In this document: positions 5,945 to 22,429 of the stretch, piece after piece
Layout of the letters: each line of letters starts with the position of its first letter
How positions within the stretch are numbered: position 1 is the stretch's first letter
Origin: a phage
Length of the DNA: 27,389 nt
Reading direction: 5' to 3' (one strand)
Assembly (NCBI GenBank): GCA_011967385.1
Contig: GCA_011967385.1_4516.1
Made by a program: the position numbers and the translations under genes
Notes under the pieces: model-generated
Database searches by the model: none
Told to the model about the DNA's origin: nothing
The model's input: the letters and a program-made list of their open reading frames with translations, nothing else

Positions 5945-7760
5945 AGGACATCCATTCTTTACGAAGTTCTGAATCATCACCCAACAACATTTCAAAGAGT
6001 TCTTTCCAATTTTCAGGAAGTTTAACTACGTCGTACACAGGGTTTTGAATCATTTCACGATATTCTGACTTTTCAAGGGAGCCTAATCCCTTGATGTATC
6101 GAATACTATGCTTAGGCAGTGTATCTTTAGCTTCTTCATACTCAGCTACAGTATAAAACCATTTTTGAGATTTGCCAATTTGTGCAATAATTACAGGTGT
6201 TTTAACAAAGCGAATACGTCCTTGTTCAAACAATTCAGGCCAATTACTAAAGAAAGCAAGCAAAGCCGGATAGATACTTCCAAGACCGTCATGATCGGCA
6301 TCGGTCATAATTGCAATATTACGATAGTTCGTATTCTCTGCCTTTTCGCCAAGAATAAGACCTGTGATAGCACAGATATCAAAGAGCTCTTTGTTCTTCA
6401 TCATATCGGCATATGACATACCCCAGCTATTCATCACCTTACCACGTAATGGGAATCCGCCATGTAGTTCACGGTCACGAACATCAATGAGATATCCAAT
6501 TGCCGAATCACCTTCTGTTAAAAACAATGTCGTATCTGCATCTTTACCGCATTGGTTAGCTTTAATATGCTTATGAACCTTAGCTTTAGTGGCCTTTTTA
6601 GCTGCTTTAGTTTCTGCAGCCTTTTCTGCTGCCAATTTACGAGCTAATGCTGCTTCAACAATAGGCATAATCAAGGCTTCGTTTTTAAGAAGTGCCTGAG
6701 CAATTTTCTTAGCATCTAATTGGATATGATTACGAATATCACCATATGTTGACGTTAAACGTTCTTTAGTCTGAGAATCAAAACGCATGTTGCTCATGTC
6801 TCTAATAAACATCAACATTGTGAGGCATTCTTTAACACGAGCTTTAGTGACTTCAATACCCTTATATTTCTTTTTAATACCGGGCAAAAGATGTTCGCAG
6901 ATATCATCCATTACACATTCAACATGATGACCACCATTTTTAGTATGGATGTTATTCACATAAGTTAAATGACGGAAGCCATCTGGTGATGTTGTGAATG
7001 CTATAGAGACTTTATCATTTTCTTGAATGATGTTATCTTCACCAAATTGTTTAGCAAATCGTTTAAAATTACCATCAACCTTTTTACCATTAAATGTGAA
7101 CTTGATATCAGGATAAACGACTGCCAATGTTTGAAGTCGGTCTAAAGTAATATCTAAATAAATTTGAGATAAATTATGCTCTTCAAATGAAGTGAAATCA
7201 GGAGTGAAGATTACTTTAGTGCCTTTACCTTTAGATTTCTTAGAAGACCATGATTTGTTTTCCATTCCGTTTGAACAGTTAACAGTGATTTCATTTTCGC
7301 CATCTGACGTGATGCCTGTAAACAACGTAGAGAAGATATTAGTTAAACTACTCCCGACGCCGTTCATACCACCAGTCTTGCGTTCAGAGTCATCACCAAA
7401 GTTACCACCGGCCTTTGGAATAGTCCAGGCTGCTACAGGCCCAGGAATTTGTTCACCCGTTTGGTCAGTAACTAAACCTTGAGGAATACCACGTCCGTTA
7501 TCTTCCACCGAAACTTGATTATTTTTAATTTGCACATCAATTTTATTTGCAAACTTAAATGATGTACGAATAGCTTCATCAACCGAGTTGTCAATAATCT
7601 CATCGATTAATTTAACCAGACCTGGAACATATTCAACTTGTTGATATTTACCAAACAAAAAACGCTCGTGGGCTTCTTTAGCAGAAGAACCAATATACAT
7701 ACCACTACGTTTCTTAATATGTTCTACATCTGACAGTACCTTAATTTCATTTTTAATCAT
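5943..7760 (-). CDS. 39: DNA topoisomerase II large subunit, continuous 39+60 form (GyrB-like ATPase plus the segment that is gp60 in T4)
   Basis: 605 aa; N-terminus MIKNEIKVLSDVEHIKKRSGMYIGS matches T4 gp39; C-terminal ...AIMTDADHDGLGSIYP...WPELFEQGRIRFVKTPVIIAQ... matches T4 gp60; single uninterrupted ORF. Confidence 0.92.
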   Translation of the reverse strand: MIKNEIKVLSDVEHIKKRSGMYIGSSAKEAHERFLFGKYQQVEYVPGLVKLIDEIIDNSVDEAIRTSFKFANKIDVQIKNNQVSVEDNGRGIPQGLVTDQTGEQIPGPVAAWTIPKAGGNFGDDSERKTGGMNGVGSSLTNIFSTLFTGITSDGENEITVNCSNGMENKSWSSKKSKGKGTKVIFTPDFTSFEEHNLSQIYLDITLDRLQTLAVVYPDIKFTFNGKKVDGNFKRFAKQFGEDNIIQENDKVSIAFTTSPDGFRHLTYVNNIHTKNGGHHVECVMDDICEHLLPGIKKKYKGIEVTKARVKECLTMLMFIRDMSNMRFDSQTKERLTSTYGDIRNHIQLDAKKIAQALLKNEALIMPIVEAALARKLAAEKAAETKAAKKATKAKVHKHIKANQCGKDADTTLFLTEGDSAIGYLIDVRDRELHGGFPLRGKVMNSWGMSYADMMKNKELFDICAITGLILGEKAENTNYRNIAIMTDADHDGLGSIYPALLAFFSNWPELFEQGRIRFVKTPVIIAQIGKSQKWFYTVAEYEEAKDTLPKHSIRYIKGLGSLEKSEYREMIQNPVYDVVKLPENWKELFEMLLGDDSELRKEWMS

Positions 7761-9096: not shown

Positions 9097-9125
9097 ATAG
9101 TATCATAGCCCATAGTTGTTGTACA
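9097..9125 (-). promoter_or_regulatory. Early-type promoter: -35 TGTACA, 17-nt spacer, extended -10 TGaTACTAT
   Basis: Minus-strand TGTACAacaactatgggctaTGaTACTAT upstream of the 75-aa gene. Confidence 0.45.
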
Positions 9126-9650
9126 TCATTTTAGCAAAATAAAATCAACTTGTTCTGCCAATGAACGTCTGAACATTAATTGACAACTTCCGAGGATGAA
9201 ATCAGGTGCTTCATAGACCGCGATGTAGTATCCTTTAGCTTTCAAGAGTTCAACATCCACCTGGTCATCAAACCATGCATAAACCGCGTCAACACTTTCA
9301 AATCCAAAATAGAACCCTTGAGCCCAATCTTCACTCAATTCAAATGTGTGCTCAATTCTATAGTATCTTAAGATATTTTGTTCAAGGAGTTTGTCTTCAT
9401 TTACTGTAGGACGATTAGGGACATTATAGTTGTCGCCGTGATGGTAGAAGTTACCTGAGATTATTCCGTGTTTATCAAGGAACTCCCATGTTTCTTCAGA
9501 GTTGTCAGTGCCCGACCAACCGTAAGGTGAGCGAGGTTCTTTATTCCAAGAGGTTTCCCAAATTCTGACGGCTTTACCATCTTCGATAGCAACTCCCGGT
9601 AAAGATTCACGTTGAGTGCAAAAACTACGTTCTACGCGGTAAACTAACAT
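9126..9650 (-). CDS. Hypothetical protein, 174 aa
   Basis: ORF track; GAGGAG SD; early-type promoter at 9677-9705. Confidence 0.6.
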   Translation of the reverse strand: MLVYRVERSFCTQRESLPGVAIEDGKAVRIWETSWNKEPRSPYGWSGTDNSEETWEFLDKHGIISGNFYHHGDNYNVPNRPTVNEDKLLEQNILRYYRIEHTFELSEDWAQGFYFGFESVDAVYAWFDDQVDVELLKAKGYYIAVYEAPDFILGSCQLMFRRSLAEQVDFILLK

Positions 9651-9676
9651 ATTATTCTCCTCTAGTCGATAGATTT

Positions 9677-9705
9677 ATAGTATCAAAACTAGAGGAGAAG
9701 TAAAC
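9677..9705 (-). promoter_or_regulatory. Early-type promoter: -35 GTTTAC, extended -10 TGaTACTAT
   Basis: Minus-strand GTTTACttctcctctagtttTGaTACTAT upstream of ORF 9126..9650. Confidence 0.5.
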
Positions 9706-9709
9706 AACT

Positions 9710-10129
9710 TTATGCAAAAGATGCTGGACAATATTTTTTGATTTGGAACTCAGGAACTACCATGAACTGTCCAGCGAAAACGATGTTATAAAGCTTAACA
9801 CCATCTTCTACCCATTGGTCGCTAATAAATCCAGCGATTTGCTTAGTTTTCCACGGTGTTCCATCGGTTGCAGCAGCAATAGTAAATTCGTGGTCTTTTA
9901 CAACTAAAACAGACCTGCACAGTTTCCATTTGAACGCTTTTTCTTCCGGTTCAATGAACCGGCTTTTAACGTAACCAATGTTACCATCGACGTCACGAAC
10001 TTTAACTTCGTTACGACCAAAAACCGGATCACTTACATAAAGAACTTCAACCAACTTACCAGCAACTTTAGAGCGAGAAGCAGGAGATACGTGTACATAA
10101 TCGCCAATAGAGAGATTTGCAATATTCAT
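9710..10129 (-). CDS. Paralog A of a tandem three-member family (139 aa) sharing the C-terminal motif GF(I/V)(S/T)DQW(V/I)EDG
   Basis: ORF track; shares SRSK.AGKLVEV, FKW.LC and GFISDQWVEDG.KLYNIVF with the next gene. Confidence 0.6.
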   Translation of the reverse strand: MNIANLSIGDYVHVSPASRSKVAGKLVEVLYVSDPVFGRNEVKVRDVDGNIGYVKSRFIEPEEKAFKWKLCRSVLVVKDHEFTIAAATDGTPWKTKQIAGFISDQWVEDGVKLYNIVFAGQFMVVPEFQIKKYCPASFA

Positions 10130-10138
10130 AATAATTCC

Positions 10139-10624
10139 TTAAGCTTTACGAGGAGACACATAACAAGTGATTTCAGATTCTTTAACAACTCGGAAGTCAC
10201 CTAAGAATACGATATTGTATAACTTTTCACCATCTTCTACCCATTGGTCACTAATGAAGCCACACATAGTATCAGTTTTGCTTGGATAACCGTATTCATC
10301 GATGAAGTCAAATTCTTTATCAGTCTGGAATTCAACGCCTTTGCAAAGGGCCCATTTGAACTGTACATTATGCTCTGTGGATTCAACTTTTTCTCTTGAA
10401 GCAAAAGCACTACTCACAGGCGTTTCCAAGAACTTTGCACGAACATAAGCAAATTTGGTTTCCTGTGTCCCAAAACTAGGAATAATACGAACCTTTACCT
10501 CAGAATCTTCATCTTTAACGCCTTCTTTAAGTTGAATACTTACAACTTCGACCAATTTTCCTGCGGCTTTAGAACGAGATTTGTTAGATACGCGAACGAT
10601 TTCACCAATAATACCAAGATTCAT
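10139..10624 (-). CDS. Paralog B of the tandem family (about 161 aa, start at MNLGIIGEIV)
   Basis: ORF track 10139..10687; start moved downstream of the promoter at 10654-10682. Confidence 0.6.
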   Translation of the reverse strand: MNLGIIGEIVRVSNKSRSKAAGKLVEVVSIQLKEGVKDEDSEVKVRIIPSFGTQETKFAYVRAKFLETPVSSAFASREKVESTEHNVQFKWALCKGVEFQTDKEFDFIDEYGYPSKTDTMCGFISDQWVEDGEKLYNIVFLGDFRVVKESEITCYVSPRKA

Positions 10625-10653
10625 AATTTCTCTCTCTTTGTTTAAATTGAATT

Positions 10654-10682
10654 CATTATACTCCATCCATCCTTGGATGTAC
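10654..10682 (-). promoter_or_regulatory. Sigma70-type promoter: -35 TGTACA, 17 nt, -10 TATAAT, for paralog B
   Basis: Minus-strand TTGTACAtccaaggatggatggagTATAAT; near-identical copy at 11213-11241. Confidence 0.55.
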
Positions 10683-10686
10683 AACA

Positions 10687-11181
10687 TTAATTAAGGATAT
10701 TAACCACAGCACTACGTGGAACTACACTAAAATCACCTGCATGAACAACGTTCAGAAGTTCAACACCGTCTTCAATCCACTGGTCAGTTACCCATCCATT
10801 TACTGGACCTGCGAACGGGCGTCGAATTGAAACATATTTACACAGCAAATCAGTAGGCTCAATAGGCTTAATCAGAGTACCGTACATACAAGCGATATCC
10901 ATATCAATACAGATGTCTTTAACGGGTTCTACTTCTTCAATCAACAGTTCAAAGTCTGTGCTTGGAAGGGCGGTAGTGGAAATTGTACCATATGAATTTT
11001 TAATTTCTAAGAATAACCAAGGGCCTTCAGCTTGTTTGATGAAGTTAACAATAGTGAAACTATTACCTTGAGTGGTGCCTAAAATTTCACAAAACTTTTC
11101 GTAAGCTCGCACTGAAGCACTGTACCAGTTGATTTGTTTTTCGTCTTTCAGGATGTAAGTAGCCGTAGTATTGATATTCAT
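10687..11181 (-). CDS. Paralog C of the tandem family (164 aa), divergent but keeps the C-terminal GWVTDQWIEDG motif
   Basis: ORF track; AGGAA SD; own promoter at 11213-11241 that is a near copy of the promoter of paralog B. Confidence 0.6.
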   Translation of the reverse strand: MNINTTATYILKDEKQINWYSASVRAYEKFCEILGTTQGNSFTIVNFIKQAEGPWLFLEIKNSYGTISTTALPSTDFELLIEEVEPVKDICIDMDIACMYGTLIKPIEPTDLLCKYVSIRRPFAGPVNGWVTDQWIEDGVELLNVVHAGDFSVVPRSAVVNILN

Positions 11182-11212
11182 AATGTTTTTCCTGTTTGGT
11201 TAAGATAGATTC

Positions 11213-11241
11213 ATTATACTCCAACCATCCTTGGTTGTAAA
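11213..11241 (-). promoter_or_regulatory. Sigma70-type promoter: -35 TTTACA, 17 nt, -10 TATAAT, for paralog C
   Basis: Minus-strand GTTTACAaccaaggatggttggagTATAAT; duplicated promoter/leader. Confidence 0.55.
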
Positions 11242-11247
11242 CTGATT

Positions 11248-11925
11248 TTATCGCTGTTTTACACTTAACGGGTCAGGATTCTCAGGAACATCTTCAAGAC
11301 CAAGCGCATAACGCTGAGCATATTTTAACATCAAAATATCTTTAGCACAATCATGAATACTATCATGGGCAACGAATCCTTTTAGCGTACCCATCGGTAA
11401 TGGACACATACTTAATCCTCGTGTCAACGAGTAAGCTTCGATTGCCGTACGAATATCGCGTTGAGCCCAGAATTTAACCGGTTCTAATTTATCAGTATCA
11501 ATATCTGGTTCAAGAACACCTTCATCACGATAGAGATCACGAATCAAATCGACCAATATCGGGAAGTCAAAGCTCATACCACGGCACCACATCTGTGATT
11601 TCCATTGGTCAACTTTATTAGCTCGACAATAATCTAAAAAGATTTTAATGCCTTCAAGCGTAGTGACATCGTCTTCAGACGGAGCCAGGTTTTTACGTGC
11701 TTCTGCTGATTGTTCTTTCCACCATTTCATAGTGGATTTAGCGAAAACTCTCTTCCCTTTCTGAGAAGCTAAATTAAATTTAATTCGCTTACCTCGTTGA
11801 ACAAGTTCTTCGAATGTTTCAACAACTTCAGGGTCGGAATTATATGCAATAACCGCAAGGTCGATAACAGCCGCTTTTGATGTATTGCCGAATGTTTCAA
11901 AATCTATAATAACATCAGTGCTCAT
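11248..11925 (-). CDS. dexA: Exonuclease A (DEDD 3'-5' exonuclease)
   Basis: 225 aa; N-terminal Exo motif VIIDFETFG; size and position next to dda as in T4. Confidence 0.8.
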   Translation of the reverse strand: MSTDVIIDFETFGNTSKAAVIDLAVIAYNSDPEVVETFEELVQRGKRIKFNLASQKGKRVFAKSTMKWWKEQSAEARKNLAPSEDDVTTLEGIKIFLDYCRANKVDQWKSQMWCRGMSFDFPILVDLIRDLYRDEGVLEPDIDTDKLEPVKFWAQRDIRTAIEAYSLTRGLSMCPLPMGTLKGFVAHDSIHDCAKDILMLKYAQRYALGLEDVPENPDPLSVKQR

Positions 11926-11934
11926 AATTTTCTC

Positions 11935-13248
11935 TCAAATAAAATGGACGTCAAAACGACCACGAGTTGTGCCGACATACAATAGTTGTTTAGCTAATTC
12001 TGAATCGGCATAATGGATACAAGGTGTATAAACAAAGGCCGTGTCAACAGACATACCCTGAGCCTTATGGAAGGTTGATACTGGTAGTGCCTTCACCTTA
12101 GTGAACATACGTTTAGCATCCCAGAATTCGCTCCATGGAGCTTTACCACCTTTATTCCAGAATTTGTATGTTTCTGCTGTCTTAGCCAAAAACAAATTGA
12201 ATTTATAAAGCTCTTCTTCAGAAGAAATAACCTTTATATCCTCGCGGACGTATTCTTCATCATCCCCATATGTTTCTACTGTAAGATTCCAGTATCGTAT
12301 CATATATTCGCCTGAAACACCACGTGCTTTAACGAATGTAGACGTTTCTACAGCATCTCGAATACGAACGAATTGCCCGTTGTTGAAAAGCATTTCGGTC
12401 ATATTTTTACCATCTAGCTTATATGTCTTAGTAAATGGCTCTTGTAGAACAATGACCTCGTCTTTAATAAATGGTTTTTCTGTTTCAAGAAGTTTTCGGC
12501 GAATAATTGAATTCAACTTGTCAACCGACTTATTTGTGAATGCCATCATTCGATTTTCGAAAAGGTCTTCAGGAGTTTTAACGACATTAAAATAGTTCAT
12601 CATATACGATTTAAGGTCTGTATATCCATGAACACCATGCCCGTCAACTACTTTATCATAAATCCATTTGCCATTACGAATATCGGTCGCAACATCAATA
12701 ATTGGTGCATTGCTACGTTTAACTTCTGTAAGGTTGCATTGCACGAAGTCTTTGTGAGTGAAGAAAGGACTTAGATACGCAGTTGATTCGCCGGGGTCCA
12801 CTGGACGAATCTGACATCGGTCACCAATTCCAATTACTGTACACCATTTAGGGATACTAGCTAACATTATTTTAAACAGAGAACGGTCACACATTGACGC
12901 TTCATCAAATAACAGTACACGACACAAGGCTAAGTCGGGAACCTTTTTCTGTTCAAATAATACGTTTTCTTCGTATGTAGTTGGGTTGATTTTAAGAATG
13001 CTATGAATAGTCGATGCTTCTTGTCCAGCAAGTTTGCTTAGAACCTTTTTAGCAGCGTGTGTTGGTGCTGCTAAAATAATACCTGATTCTCCAGAAGAAA
13101 TAAGGGCTTCAACGATGAATCTAGTAAGGGTTGTTTTACCCGTACCAGCAGGTCCATTAATAGTTACGTGATGTTTCTTTTCTTTAATAGCTTTCATAAC
13201 AACGTTGAAGGCGTTTTTCTGGCCGTCAGTCAAATCATCAAATGTCAT
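11935..13248 (-). CDS. dda: Dda DNA helicase (SF1B)
   Basis: 437 aa; Walker A GPAGTGKTT; size and synteny match T4 Dda (439 aa). Confidence 0.9.
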   Translation of the reverse strand: MTFDDLTDGQKNAFNVVMKAIKEKKHHVTINGPAGTGKTTLTRFIVEALISSGESGIILAAPTHAAKKVLSKLAGQEASTIHSILKINPTTYEENVLFEQKKVPDLALCRVLLFDEASMCDRSLFKIMLASIPKWCTVIGIGDRCQIRPVDPGESTAYLSPFFTHKDFVQCNLTEVKRSNAPIIDVATDIRNGKWIYDKVVDGHGVHGYTDLKSYMMNYFNVVKTPEDLFENRMMAFTNKSVDKLNSIIRRKLLETEKPFIKDEVIVLQEPFTKTYKLDGKNMTEMLFNNGQFVRIRDAVETSTFVKARGVSGEYMIRYWNLTVETYGDDEEYVREDIKVISSEEELYKFNLFLAKTAETYKFWNKGGKAPWSEFWDAKRMFTKVKALPVSTFHKAQGMSVDTAFVYTPCIHYADSELAKQLLYVGTTRGRFDVHFI

Positions 13249-20596: not shown

Positions 20597-20625
20597 TTTA
20601 ACTCCTTAGTTGATTTGATAGGACT

Positions 20626-20654
20626 ACTATACTATAGTCCATCTATAATGTAAA
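20626..20654 (-). promoter_or_regulatory. Early-type promoter: -35 TTTACA, 17 nt, -10 TATAGT, upstream of sp
   Basis: Minus-strand GTTTACAttatagatggactatagTATAGT. Confidence 0.45.
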
Positions 20655-20659
20655 CAAGT

Positions 20660-21837: not shown

Positions 21838-21937
21838 ATTTTCGATGTTAGCTGAACTACTTGAACCGTGATAAAAATCTTAAATTCTGCTTTACAATCG
21901 ATGGTTTTCATTTTGTTCTCCAGTAGTTGATAGGTTT

Positions 21938-21966
21938 ATAATAACACAACTACTGGAGAAGTAAAC
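21938..21966 (-). promoter_or_regulatory. Early-type promoter: -35 GTTTAC, -10 TATTAT
   Basis: Plus-strand tttataataac ... gtaaac upstream of the ORFs at 21595-21911. Confidence 0.4.
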
Positions 21967-22341: not shown

Positions 22342-22370
22342 AATGTTTTCCTCTTGGTTGGTGTAAGTAC

Positions 22371-22399
22371 ATCATATCATGCCTAGAGGAAGATGTAAA
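22371..22399 (-). promoter_or_regulatory. Early-type promoter: -35 GTTTAC, 17 nt, extended -10 TGaTATGAT, upstream of the 124-aa gene
   Basis: Minus-strand GTTTACatcttcctctaggcaTGaTATGAT, immediately downstream of the hairpin after gene 41. Confidence 0.45.
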
Positions 22400-22405
22400 C
22401 CCCGA

Positions 22406-22423
22406 AAGGAGACCGAAGTCTCC
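22406..22423 (-). terminator. UUCG-tetraloop hairpin after gene 41; the minus-strand U-tract is short, so it may be an RNA stability element or weak terminator
   Basis: Minus-strand AGGAGACttcgGTCTCCTttcgggg; the better T-run lies on the plus-strand side. Confidence 0.4.
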
Positions 22424-22429
22424 TTTTTA

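Follow-up and report, generated by a model that had tools for sequence, protein, structure and literature searches.

Three short genes of related sequence lie one behind the other on the minus strand of a 27,389-nt stretch of phage DNA (the window), and nearly identical promoters precede the first two. We asked whether this arrangement records a recent copying of one gene together with its promoter, or whether the genes and the promoters have separate histories. By its sequence, the source phage is an RB69-like Mosigvirus of the T4 type: identity over the region is 97% with Shigella phage Shf125875 and about 95% with RB69. In both of these genomes the annotated order is dexA, motB.1, motB, ORF010c ("similar to motB"), motB.2 and cef. 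The region is the motB locus, with three early genes of the MotB family (PF17613). The three open reading frames proposed in the initial annotation were recovered on the minus strand (11181..10687, 10624..10139 and 10129..9710), and they correspond to genes known from RB69-like T4-type phages: motB.1, motB and a second copy of motB. Taking all observations together, we consider it highly probable that the locus combines an old trio of MotB-family genes with mobile promoter cassettes of the PeSL type. The features discussed below are:

11182..11247, minus strand: dexA-motB.1 intergenic promoter cassette, putative PeSL type
10687..11181, minus strand: motB.1, 164 aa (phrog_2333, PF17613, annotation of relatives)
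10711..10797, minus strand: conserved C-terminal core of motB.1, GWVTDQWIEDGVELLNVVHAGDFSVVPRS
10625..10686, minus strand: motB.1-motB intergenic promoter cassette, putative PeSL type
10139..10624, minus strand: motB, 161 aa, ATG with ribosome-binding site (PF17613, phrog_1671)
10175..10261, minus strand: conserved C-terminal core of motB, GFISDQWVEDGEKLYNIVFLGDFRVVKES
9710..10129, minus strand: second motB copy, 139 aa, RB69 ORF010c type (PF17613, phrog_1671)
9746..9832, minus strand: conserved C-terminal core of the second motB copy, GFISDQWVEDGVKLYNIVFAGQFMVVPEF

The three genes encode members of the MotB family

All three proteins passed the curated gathering score of PF17613 (25 bits). 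The 161-aa protein scored 181.3 bits, the 139-aa protein 82.3 bits and the 164-aa protein 35.3 bits, the latter with its C-terminal part only. The C-terminal block shared by the three proteins also had statistical support in pairwise BLASTP comparisons (161 vs. 139 aa, E = 3e-29 over the full length; 164 vs. 139 aa, E = 4e-11; 164 vs. 161 aa, E = 4e-10 with 16/31 identical residues). The core G(F/W)(I/V)(S/T)DQW(V/I)EDG..L.N.V was found in every protein, and SRSK.AGKLVEV and FKW.LC are common to the 161- and 139-aa proteins only. The 164-aa protein reads NVVHAG instead of NIVF.G. The shared part, roughly 50 residues long, is a small C-terminal beta-barrel; motB and its second copy also have a KOW/SH3-like N-terminal barrel in common, from which the N-terminal domain of motB.1 differs.

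These relationships are not new. MotB and MotB.1 have been described to share their C-terminal domain, and RB69 to carry two motB copies plus motB.1 (PMC7827196), in the family description given by Patterson-West et al. (2018 and 2021, Viruses). The paralogy, including the copy number in RB69, was thus published in 2021 and is also present in database annotation. The label "unknown function" in the initial annotation has to be replaced accordingly.

The 161-aa gene is the ortholog of T4 MotB. Its product aligned with profile positions 5-157 of 162 in PF17613 (E = 1.6e-53) and with phrog_1671 (E = 7.9e-70), and the assignment is supported by the annotations of RB69 and Shf125875. The second copy, annotated as "RB69ORF010c similar to motB", matched phrog_1671 with E = 7.1e-52 and is ~40% identical to T4 MotB. 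Both proteins possess a KOW-like N-terminal domain with the SRSKAAGKLVEV motif, the class referred to as MotB proper or "Category 1" by Patterson-West et al. (2021), and thereby match the T4 MotB family in Pfam entry and two-domain layout. For the second copy, the secondary structure of the Alphafold2 model (pLDDT 85) suggests two beta-barrels. Its ATG follows the motB stop codon after 9 nt and it has no promoter of its own; from this arrangement we conclude that it is co-transcribed with motB. Some databases annotate motB at 172-186 aa. An N-terminal extension of motB, for which the frame is open to 10687, was rejected, as it crosses the promoter and indels interrupt it in RB69. We also rejected motB.2 (174 aa, 9650..9126) as a fourth family member (hhalign probability 0.04, no Pfam match).

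The 164-aa protein belongs to the MotB.1 branch. It matched phrog_2333, a MotB.1 profile, over the full length (E = 1.3e-82), is 97% identical to a 181-member protein cluster, and its ortholog in Shf125875 is annotated as "similar to RB51 and RB69 motB.1". It lacks the KOW-like N-terminal domain with SRSKAAGKLVEV and has the N-terminal bent five-stranded sheet of the MotB.1 subfamily, a domain described as LSm-like (PMC12152347; Kim et al. 2025). This domain is followed by a disordered linker with a DMDIACMYGTLIKP motif and by the MotB-type C-terminal small beta-barrel. In the Alphafold2 model (mean pLDDT 79), residues 86-106 fall below 50 and five strands lie within residues 116-163. The window's motB.1 carries the C-terminal core that is shared across the MotB/MotB.1 family of T4. 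T4 and the window also have the genomic neighborhood (dexA ... cef) in common; the T4 gene order differs (dexA, motB.2, motB.1, motB), and the second motB copy is absent in T4.

T4 MotB is a characterized nonspecific DNA-binding protein that alters H-NS binding. It is toxic, co-purifies with H-NS and doubles the burst size (PMC6070864); DNA binding, H-NS co-purification, toxicity in E. coli and the effect on burst size are known for T4 MotB only (PMC6070864, PMC7827196). By homology, the product of the window's motB, and probably that of the copy too, would be an abundant early protein that binds DNA without sequence specificity. It would shift the placement of the host silencer H-NS on DNA, leading to a modestly higher burst size.

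Reference records contain truncated forms of motB.1

In the reference records of both T4 and RB69, frameshifts inside the conserved C-terminal domain truncate motB.1. In 13 other T4-type records (eleven named T4 or T4T, plus RB55 and RB59), motB.1 encodes 143 aa, not 119. The RB69 record splits the gene into 132 aa and a 29-aa "peptide", which is the displaced C-terminus of motB.1; in the window, motB.1 is intact with 164 aa. Published structure predictions and assays give T4 MotB.1 as 13.8 kDa. Since this is the size of the 119-aa reference form, these predictions and assays may have lacked most of the C-terminal domain.

The gene duplications are old

Between paralogs, the DNA of the shared block is 54-70% identical, and only 5/15 to 12/22 codons at conserved degenerate residues are the same, i.e., synonymous sites are scrambled. 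A blastn comparison of motB.1 with motB gave no significant match. Each of the three paralogs has orthologs across genera, and for the 139-aa copy, orthologs with at least 80% identity were present in 209 of 778 phage records carrying a MotB homolog. The scrambled synonymous sites and the orthologs across genera argue against the recent expansion proposed in the initial annotation. Based on these sequence comparisons, we conclude that the duplications are old and that phages differ in which copies are kept.

Two near-identical promoter cassettes precede motB.1 and motB

Both cassettes are built alike: AT-rich sequence, the -35 box, a spacer with a short stem-loop, the -10 box, and a ribosome-binding site ahead of the ATG. 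In the dexA-motB.1 cassette, the -35 box TTTACA (11241-11236) and the -10 box TATAAT (11218-11213) enclose the stem-loop CAACCA/AGGA/TGGTTG (11237-11222) and GGAG (11222-11219). The motB.1-motB cassette has TGTACA (10683-10678), TATAAT (10660-10655), the stem-loop CATCCA/AGGA/TGGATG (10679-10664) and GGAG (10664-10661) in the corresponding places. In both, a leader with a ribosome-binding site and ATG follows, and both genes begin with ATGAAT. Four-codon mini-ORFs after the -10 box (ATGAAT...TAA in both leaders) were dismissed as chance, since RB69 and Shf125875 lack them in their motB.1 leaders.

On the aligned sequences, the cassettes are identical at 29/31 positions from TACA to GAAT, and at 30/35 (86%) over 35 nt from the -35 hexamer, so that the "about 90 percent" given earlier was roughly right. 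With sigma-70-type hexamer scores of 11/12 and 10/12 and a 17-nt spacing, they are the two best promoters between 9000 and 12000. With up to three mismatches allowed, a 26-nt core, CCAAGGATGGWTGGAGTATAATGAAT, was found at two places only (10651-10676 and 11209-11234), while shuffled sequences gave an expectation of 0.

Both spacers contain a 6-bp stem with an AGGA loop, and their two differences fall on both sides of a single stem base pair. Across 13 distinct cassettes the stem is 94.9% paired and two pairs change on both sides, although these represent few independent haplotypes. The hairpin is weak (about -7 kcal/mol, z -1.4 to -2.3) and alternative folds compete with it. An intrinsic terminator was rejected: besides the low stability, single-sequence z-scores are not significant, no T-run follows the stem and no terminator-like site was called there. 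A DNA palindrome bound by a dimeric protein is less likely, as both stem variants occur within one genome and several variants pair only via G-U wobble.

The cassettes did not arise together with the genes

A plain explanation of the promoter similarity would be the shared consensus of T4-type early promoters, in line with the GTTTAC-like -35 box, the TATAAT -10 box and the 17-nt spacing of both. Ten or so further early promoters of the window carry the same hexamers with unrelated spacers and leaders, which shows that the cassette similarity exceeds the consensus, as had been claimed initially; together with the twofold occurrence of the core, this makes the consensus explanation extremely improbable. 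Alternatively, a gene of unknown function was recently triplicated in tandem, each copy bringing its promoter and leader, and the promoter similarity is a relic of this event. Tandem paralogs in the same orientation, two near-identical promoters and the common ATGAAT start speak for such a history. Set against this, the synonymous sites within the shared block have reached saturation and blastn gave no significant match between motB.1 and motB, yet the promoter core is almost unchanged. Further, the two promoters are directly followed by coding sequence for N-terminal domains that are not related to each other, and no promoter is common to motB and the 139-aa copy, which are the most similar pair. 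In T4, motB.1 lacks its own promoter and the motB promoter is a different one. We therefore regard a recent triplication as very improbable: the tandem paralogs and the near-identical promoters of the earlier proposal stand, its recent date and the joint duplication of promoter and gene do not.

The same cassette was also found upstream of unrelated genes of phrog_1435 and phrog_2351 (nrdC.3- and nrdC.5-like). Phages JK45 and AV116 are without motB.1. In each, dexA and motB are linked by just one chimeric cassette, whose crossover point differs between the two phages. The region between dexA and motB is plastic, as initially noted, with relatives differing in the presence of motB.1. The best 15 matches to a 106-nt junction probe (two of them JK45) had full coverage and at least 92% identity; JK45 and AV116 alone were inspected directly. 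This count of genomes without motB.1 is a lower bound, as 90% of the probe also aligns with the dexA-motB.1 junction. A metagenome scan with TACNNNNNAGGANNNNNGGAGTATAA was not specific enough: of the 120 stretches it gave, most were unrelated and just a handful were of T4 type. Given the contrast between the 29/31 core and the dissimilar gene DNA, the cassettes before unrelated genes and the breakpoints inside cassettes, we conclude that promoters and genes were not duplicated together.

We propose, from sequence, that the two promoters are regulatory cassettes of the PeSL type, at which relatives gained or lost motB.1. The PeSL class was established on RB49/phi1, T4/PST and KVP40/nt-1 rather than on RB69-like phages (Arbiol et al. 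2010; Comeau et al. [quoted passage not shown] PMC2839356 makes no mention of RB69, and we found no description of PeSLs in RB69-like phages in the PeSL literature consulted. The window's cassettes resemble PeSLs as intergenic sigma-70-type early promoters with a stem-loop between -35 and -10, AT-rich sequence upstream and a ribosome-binding site with ATG at the 3' end, and also in their copies before unrelated genes and in the breakpoints of gene presence or absence that lie within them. They differ from PeSLs in that the stem-loop is short and weak, making the terminator function shown for RB49 PeSLs unlikely here, and in that the -10 box overlaps GGAG, a RegB-type motif. Spread among unrelated early genes, the cassettes would serve as short homologies for recombination. 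Two of them flank motB.1, and a single chimeric one is present in relatives without this gene. The sequences are compatible with excision as well as insertion of motB.1.

A possible RNA signal within the cassettes

Even without recombination, strong purifying selection on a regulatory signal common to both promoters could preserve their similarity. The -10 box overlaps GGAGUAUAA, which resembles the site of the RegB nuclease in the T4 motB leader. The two are identical over 9 nt, and this leader site, GGAGUAUAAAA, is the model RegB/S1 substrate, with the consensus GGAGRAYARAA (PMC1702504; Durand et al. 2006, NAR). Like RegB/S1 sites, GGAGUAUAA is intergenic and lies within an early transcription unit. 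It differs in its location upstream of the local transcription start, such that only read-through RNA would carry it. Compared with the consensus, GGAGUAUAAUG matches at positions 1-4 and 6-9, has U at position 5 as in the T4 motB site, and has U and G instead of A and A at positions 10 and 11; the first G lies in the stem. Any role of the stem-loop and GGAG at the RNA level is putative.

On this basis, the cassettes might be alike mainly by selection on a dual DNA and RNA signal rather than by recombination. The element would act as a promoter on DNA; in RNA reading through from the upstream gene, its spacer would form a hairpin whose loop reads AAGGAY, and GGAGUAUAAU, a putative RegB/S1-type cleavage site, would come next. 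Cleavage of long transcripts would leave the upstream fragment with a protective hairpin at its end, and locally initiated transcripts would be without the site. Stem covariation that includes U-G and G-U wobble variants favors pairing in RNA, and the same loop is found on different stems (AGCCA/TGGCT in T4 nrdC.3, CCACA/TGTGG in T4 nrdC.4 and ACCC/GGGT in Shf125875 nrdC.6). T4 nrdC.3 even retains the hairpin and GGAGTATAAAT without a -35 box, and the T4 motB leader provides the precedent for cleavage. However, the hairpin is weak and has competing folds, positions 10 and 11 deviate from the A-rich consensus, and the first G of GGAG is paired, whereas RegB needs single-stranded RNA. Selection on such a signal also leaves the chimeric cassettes of JK45 and AV116 unexplained. 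We consider it possible, though unlikely, that this selection is the main reason for the similarity; it can coexist with the PeSL explanation. That the cassettes of motB.1, motB and the nrdC.3/nrdC.5-like genes are dual-use elements, with a strong early promoter and a conserved RNA hairpin 5' of a predicted RegB-type GGAGUAUAA, strikes us on the sequence as a doubtful proposition.

Implications

The main finding on the genes adds little, as the family, the domain sharing and the RB69 copy number were already in the literature and annotation. With its two independent chimeric junctions, the locus is a clean natural example of cassette-bounded gene gain or loss in RB69-like phages. The overlap of the -10 box with a RegB-type motif further offers a testable idea, namely that T-even phages may treat read-through and locally initiated early transcripts differently. 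If this is true, the phage could tell the two apart, with read-through transcripts being cleaved and a 3' hairpin closing off the upstream fragment, and selection on an RNA signal, not recombination alone, would keep the cassettes alike.

Identity of the three genes

Genes in this part of the window are all minus-strand, and the region 9100-11950 shares 97% identity with Shigella phage Shf125875 (Mosigvirus) and ~95% with RB69.

Gene layout of the dda-motB.2 region, in transcription order
13248..11935, minus, dda
11925..11248, minus, dexA, downstream of dda
66-nt gap between dexA and the 164-aa gene
11181..10687, minus, 164-aa gene (motB.1)
62-nt gap between the 164-aa and 161-aa genes
10624..10139, minus, 161-aa gene (motB)
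9-nt gap between the 161-aa and 139-aa genes
10129..9710, minus, 139-aa gene (second motB copy)
59-nt gap between the 139-aa and 174-aa genes
9650..9126, minus, 174-aa gene (motB.2)

The RB69 record (2003) lists dexA, motB.1, a 29-aa ORF012c, motB, "RB69ORF010c similar to motB", motB.2 and cef, and the annotation of the locus in Shf125875 agrees with it. The 164-, 161- and 139-aa proteins all pass the gathering score of Pfam PF17613 ("motB, modifier of transcription"). In PHROGs, the 161- and 139-aa proteins are assigned to phrog_1671 (MotB-like) and the 164-aa protein to phrog_2333, with a secondary match of its C-terminus to phrog_1671. The initial annotation had described a family of unknown function; judged by Pfam, PHROGs and the RB69 and Shf125875 annotations, the genes are motB.1, motB and a second motB copy, and not an unfamiliar family beside motB. 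We rejected motB.2 (174 aa) as a further member; it is unrelated and has only the name in common. Upstream of motB the reading frame stays open across the promoter as far as an ATG that overlaps the motB.1 stop (window 10625-10687, minus), and several database MotB entries (172-186 aa; 175 aa in Shf125875) carry the corresponding MLYIQGWMEYNEFNLNKERE... extension. Since RB69 has indels in that stretch, these extended starts are probably mis-called.

From an alignment of 102 phage homologs, Patterson-West et al. (2021) described a conserved C-terminal domain common to MotB and MotB.1 next to differing N-terminal domains, proposed that one of the two derived from the other by duplication, and predicted a KOW-like N-terminal and an OB-fold-like C-terminal domain (PMC7827196). 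T4 MotB is toxic to E. coli and a tight, non-specific DNA binder; it also co-purifies with H-NS, whose footprints it changes, and doubles the burst size (PMC6070864; PMC7827196). Kim et al. (2025) called the N-terminal domain of MotB.1 LSm-like and saw no phenotype when motB.1 was deleted from T4 (PMC12152347). The gene family, the domain sharing and the RB69 copy number are already known.

The shared C-terminal block

The C-terminal block noticed initially is real and significant in all three pairwise BLASTP comparisons (E = 4e-10, 4e-11 and 3e-29). Between the 161- and 139-aa proteins the alignment is full-length (43% identity), and the likeness of the 164-aa protein to both is limited to its last ~30 residues.

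Structures of the 139-aa and 164-aa proteins were predicted from family alignments. The strand pattern in the model of the 139-aa copy (mean pLDDT 85) suggests two beta-barrels. In the MotB.1 model (mean pLDDT 79), a sheet-plus-helix domain at the N-terminus is connected through a disordered linker (residues 86-106) to a C-terminal barrel of five strands (residues 116-163), and the shared block is predicted to form most of a small beta-barrel. Such small barrels commonly bind nucleic acids or peptides. The models point to the SH3/Tudor/KOW class rather than the classical OB-fold, and thus agree in general with the OB-fold-like C-terminus predicted by Patterson-West 2021 but differ in class. 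In the family alignments, at least four kinds of N-terminal context accompany the MotB.1-type barrel; KOW-like ones are among them, in Klebsiella and Enterobacter phages. Additionally, a motif D(M/F)D(I/V)A(C/S)MYGTL(I/V)KP was observed in the disordered MotB.1 linker (residues ~93-110; window 10852-10905, minus); it is missing from the 143-145-aa T4-type MotB.1 and occurs again at the N-terminus of 180- and 250-aa relatives bearing the same C-terminal barrel.

Frameshifts in the T4 and RB69 reference records

The T4 reference (AF158101/NC_000866; NC_000866.4 ~7290-7310) contains one extra G in the conserved core of motB.1 (ATTGGAAGA vs ATTGAAGA), resulting in an annotated 119-aa MotB.1 that ends ...DQWIGRWR*. 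Thirteen other T4-type records (eleven under the name T4 or T4T, the others being RB55 and RB59) code for an intact 143-aa MotB.1, matching it at 100% identity over a single piece; only the two T4 reference records need two pieces to match it. Because the published size of T4 MotB.1, 13.8 kDa, is that of the 119-aa form, the T4 MotB.1 of published work may lack most of the C-terminal barrel. In the RB69 reference (AY303349.1), a single T is inserted at two places (CCGTTTCG and ACGGTTG) relative to both the window and Shf125875. These insertions break motB.1 into two ORFs, one of 132 aa and the other ORF012c with 29 aa, so that what Patterson-West 2021 named a 29-aa "Category 3 peptide" is the displaced MotB.1 C-terminus. 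The RB69 insertions represent either sequencing error or mutation in the stock. We regard the frameshift errors in both reference records as among the most useful by-products of this analysis.

Age of the paralogs

DNA identity in the 29-codon core is 54% for motB.1 and motB, 61% for motB.1 and the 139-aa copy and 70% for motB and the 139-aa copy, with identical codons at 5/15, 10/16 and 12/22 conserved degenerate positions, respectively; blastn gave no significant alignment between motB.1 and motB. All three paralogs have orthologs of their own. Of the 778 phage records carrying a MotB homolog, 209, Tequatrovirus such as RB51 among them, contain the 139-aa copy at no less than 80% identity, and MotB.1 forms of 143-169 aa occur across T-even phages. 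The low core identity, the few matching codons and the separate orthologs speak against the family being "recently expanding", and phages that differ in copy number do so by keeping or losing old paralogs.

Three database proteins (P0147, P0149 and P0151), each from a single short contig or assembly, fuse a MotB N-terminal domain to an ORF010c-type C-terminal domain, one of them with its switch point within GFISDQWVEDG. They could be recombinants between tandem copies, or may be assembly artefacts or chimeras.

A promoter cassette before motB.1, motB and unrelated genes

The two top-scoring sigma-70-type sites in the region lie in the intergenic stretches before motB.1 and motB. Both promoters have a 26-nt core in common that is found nowhere else in the window. 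Since about 10 further early promoters in the window combine the same GTTTAC and TAtAAT boxes with unrelated spacers, the similarity exceeds the mere promoter consensus. The proposal that promoter and leader were duplicated along with the gene does not fit: the promoter cores are identical at 29/31 positions, whereas the genes behind them are unalignable in DNA and have unrelated first domains; motB and the 139-aa copy, the closest paralog pair, have no promoter in common; and in T4, motB.1 is without its own promoter and the motB promoter is differently built. The observation in the initial annotation holds; its interpretation was only partly right.

Pattern scans of viral and metagenomic contigs detected the same cassette, GTTTACA(A/T)CCAAGGA(T/C)GG(A/T)TGGAGTATAAT, before unrelated genes (~316-336 aa, phrog_1435 and phrog_2351), whose Shf125875 counterparts are nrdC.3- and nrdC.5-like. 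From the -35 box into the leader, the Shf125875 nrdC.3 cassette matches the window motB.1 cassette. The nrdC.3- and nrdC.5-like genes adjoin each other, are of similar size and have coiled-coil-like C-termini. The nrdC cassettes and hairpins described here come from Shf125875 10790-10860, 11812-11870 and 12863-12925 and from the T4 sequence upstream of nrdC.3 and nrdC.4.

Both spacers can be folded as CA(A/U)CCA-AGGA-UGG(U/A)UG, and the two spacer differences between the cassettes are the two sides of one base pair. Across 13 distinct cassettes, which represent a small number of independent haplotypes for covariation, 94.9% of cells are paired vs 13-53% when the partner is shifted by 1-3 positions; two of the pairs vary on both sides, and in several variants pairing is kept only as G-U or U-G. 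The AAGGAY loop is also found on markedly different stems (T4 nrdC.3, AGCCA/TGGCT; T4 nrdC.4, CCACA/TGTGG; Shf125875 nrdC.6, ACCC/GGGT). The stem is weak (~-7 kcal/mol, with competing folds), and z-scores are non-significant on single sequences. At Shf125875 nrdC.6 and T4 nrdC.4 no GGAG accompanies the AAGGAY-loop hairpin. At T4 nrdC.3 the hairpin is accompanied by GGAGTATAAAT but not by a -35 box, and this looks like a degraded cassette.

Immediately 3' of the stem, and overlapping the -10 box, is GGAGUAUAAU. The model substrate of the RegB/S1 endoribonuclease (consensus GGAGRAYARAA; PMC1702504) is GGAGUAUAAAA of the T4 motB leader. Here the RegB-type motif is located upstream of the local start, so that only read-through RNA would carry it. 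A dual DNA/RNA role of the cassette is possible but unproven; the overlap of promoter and RegB-type site is testable and also among the most useful by-products.

Other promoter designs were seen in the window. In the early promoters at 9648-9709, 21895-21966 and 22342-22429 (all minus), the spacer matches the reverse complement of the ribosome-binding site that follows, and the -10 box sits in the loop (for example CUUCUCCUCUAGU ... ACUAGAGGAGAAG), with strong folds of -20.2 kcal/mol (z -4.8) and -21.4 kcal/mol (z -5.7). The ribosome-binding site would be sequestered on read-through RNA and free on locally started RNA. A similar sequestering design is known for the T4 genes e, soc, 49 and I-TevI. 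In a third design (434-502 and 20597-20659, minus), the hairpin loop holds the -10 box (GGACUA...UAGUCC). The T4 motB promoter (~2680-2730 of the extracted T4 stretch, minus) is of this -10-in-loop type (GGGACC-AGAGTATAAT-GGTCCC), and after it comes another GGAGTATAAAA, which is the known RegB site. The -10-in-loop hairpins have modest energies (z -1.5 to -1.8).

Breakpoints at the cassette

motB.1 is absent in Shigella phage JK45 and Escherichia phage AV116, the two genomes checked directly, where dexA is followed by ~64 nt and then directly by motB. Their single intergenic cassette is chimeric. Its 5' part (dexA stop, AT-rich stretch, -35, CAACCA..TGGTTG stem, -10) is of the dexA-motB.1 type and its 3' part (TTAAACAAAGAGAG...ATG) is the motB leader, with a switch position that differs between JK45 and AV116. 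A 106-nt JK45 junction probe was fully covered at 92% identity or more in the top 15 rows, two of which are one phage, JK45. The JK45 record (MK962757.1) is labelled Tequatrovirus, with a dda-dexA-motB region ~95% identical to the Mosigvirus-like window, which points to either a mosaic genome or a doubtful taxonomic label.

The window motB.1 cassette reads TATAATGAAT, as do the motB and nrdC.3 cassettes, where that of the closest relatives reads TATAATCTTT, which suggests patchy exchange between cassette copies.

Promoter-early stem-loops (PeSLs) are early promoters with a stem-loop, which in one subclass is placed between -35 and -10. Their stems include G-T pairs; the cassettes are common to unrelated genes and act in pairs as recombination points at which the intervening gene is excised or inserted (PMC2839356; PMC4122927). 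The motB.1 and motB cassettes behave as PeSLs are described to, and on sequence grounds we assign the promoter repeat to this known kind of mobile regulatory cassette. The comparison presented here provides direct comparative evidence for cassette-bounded gain or loss of motB.1.
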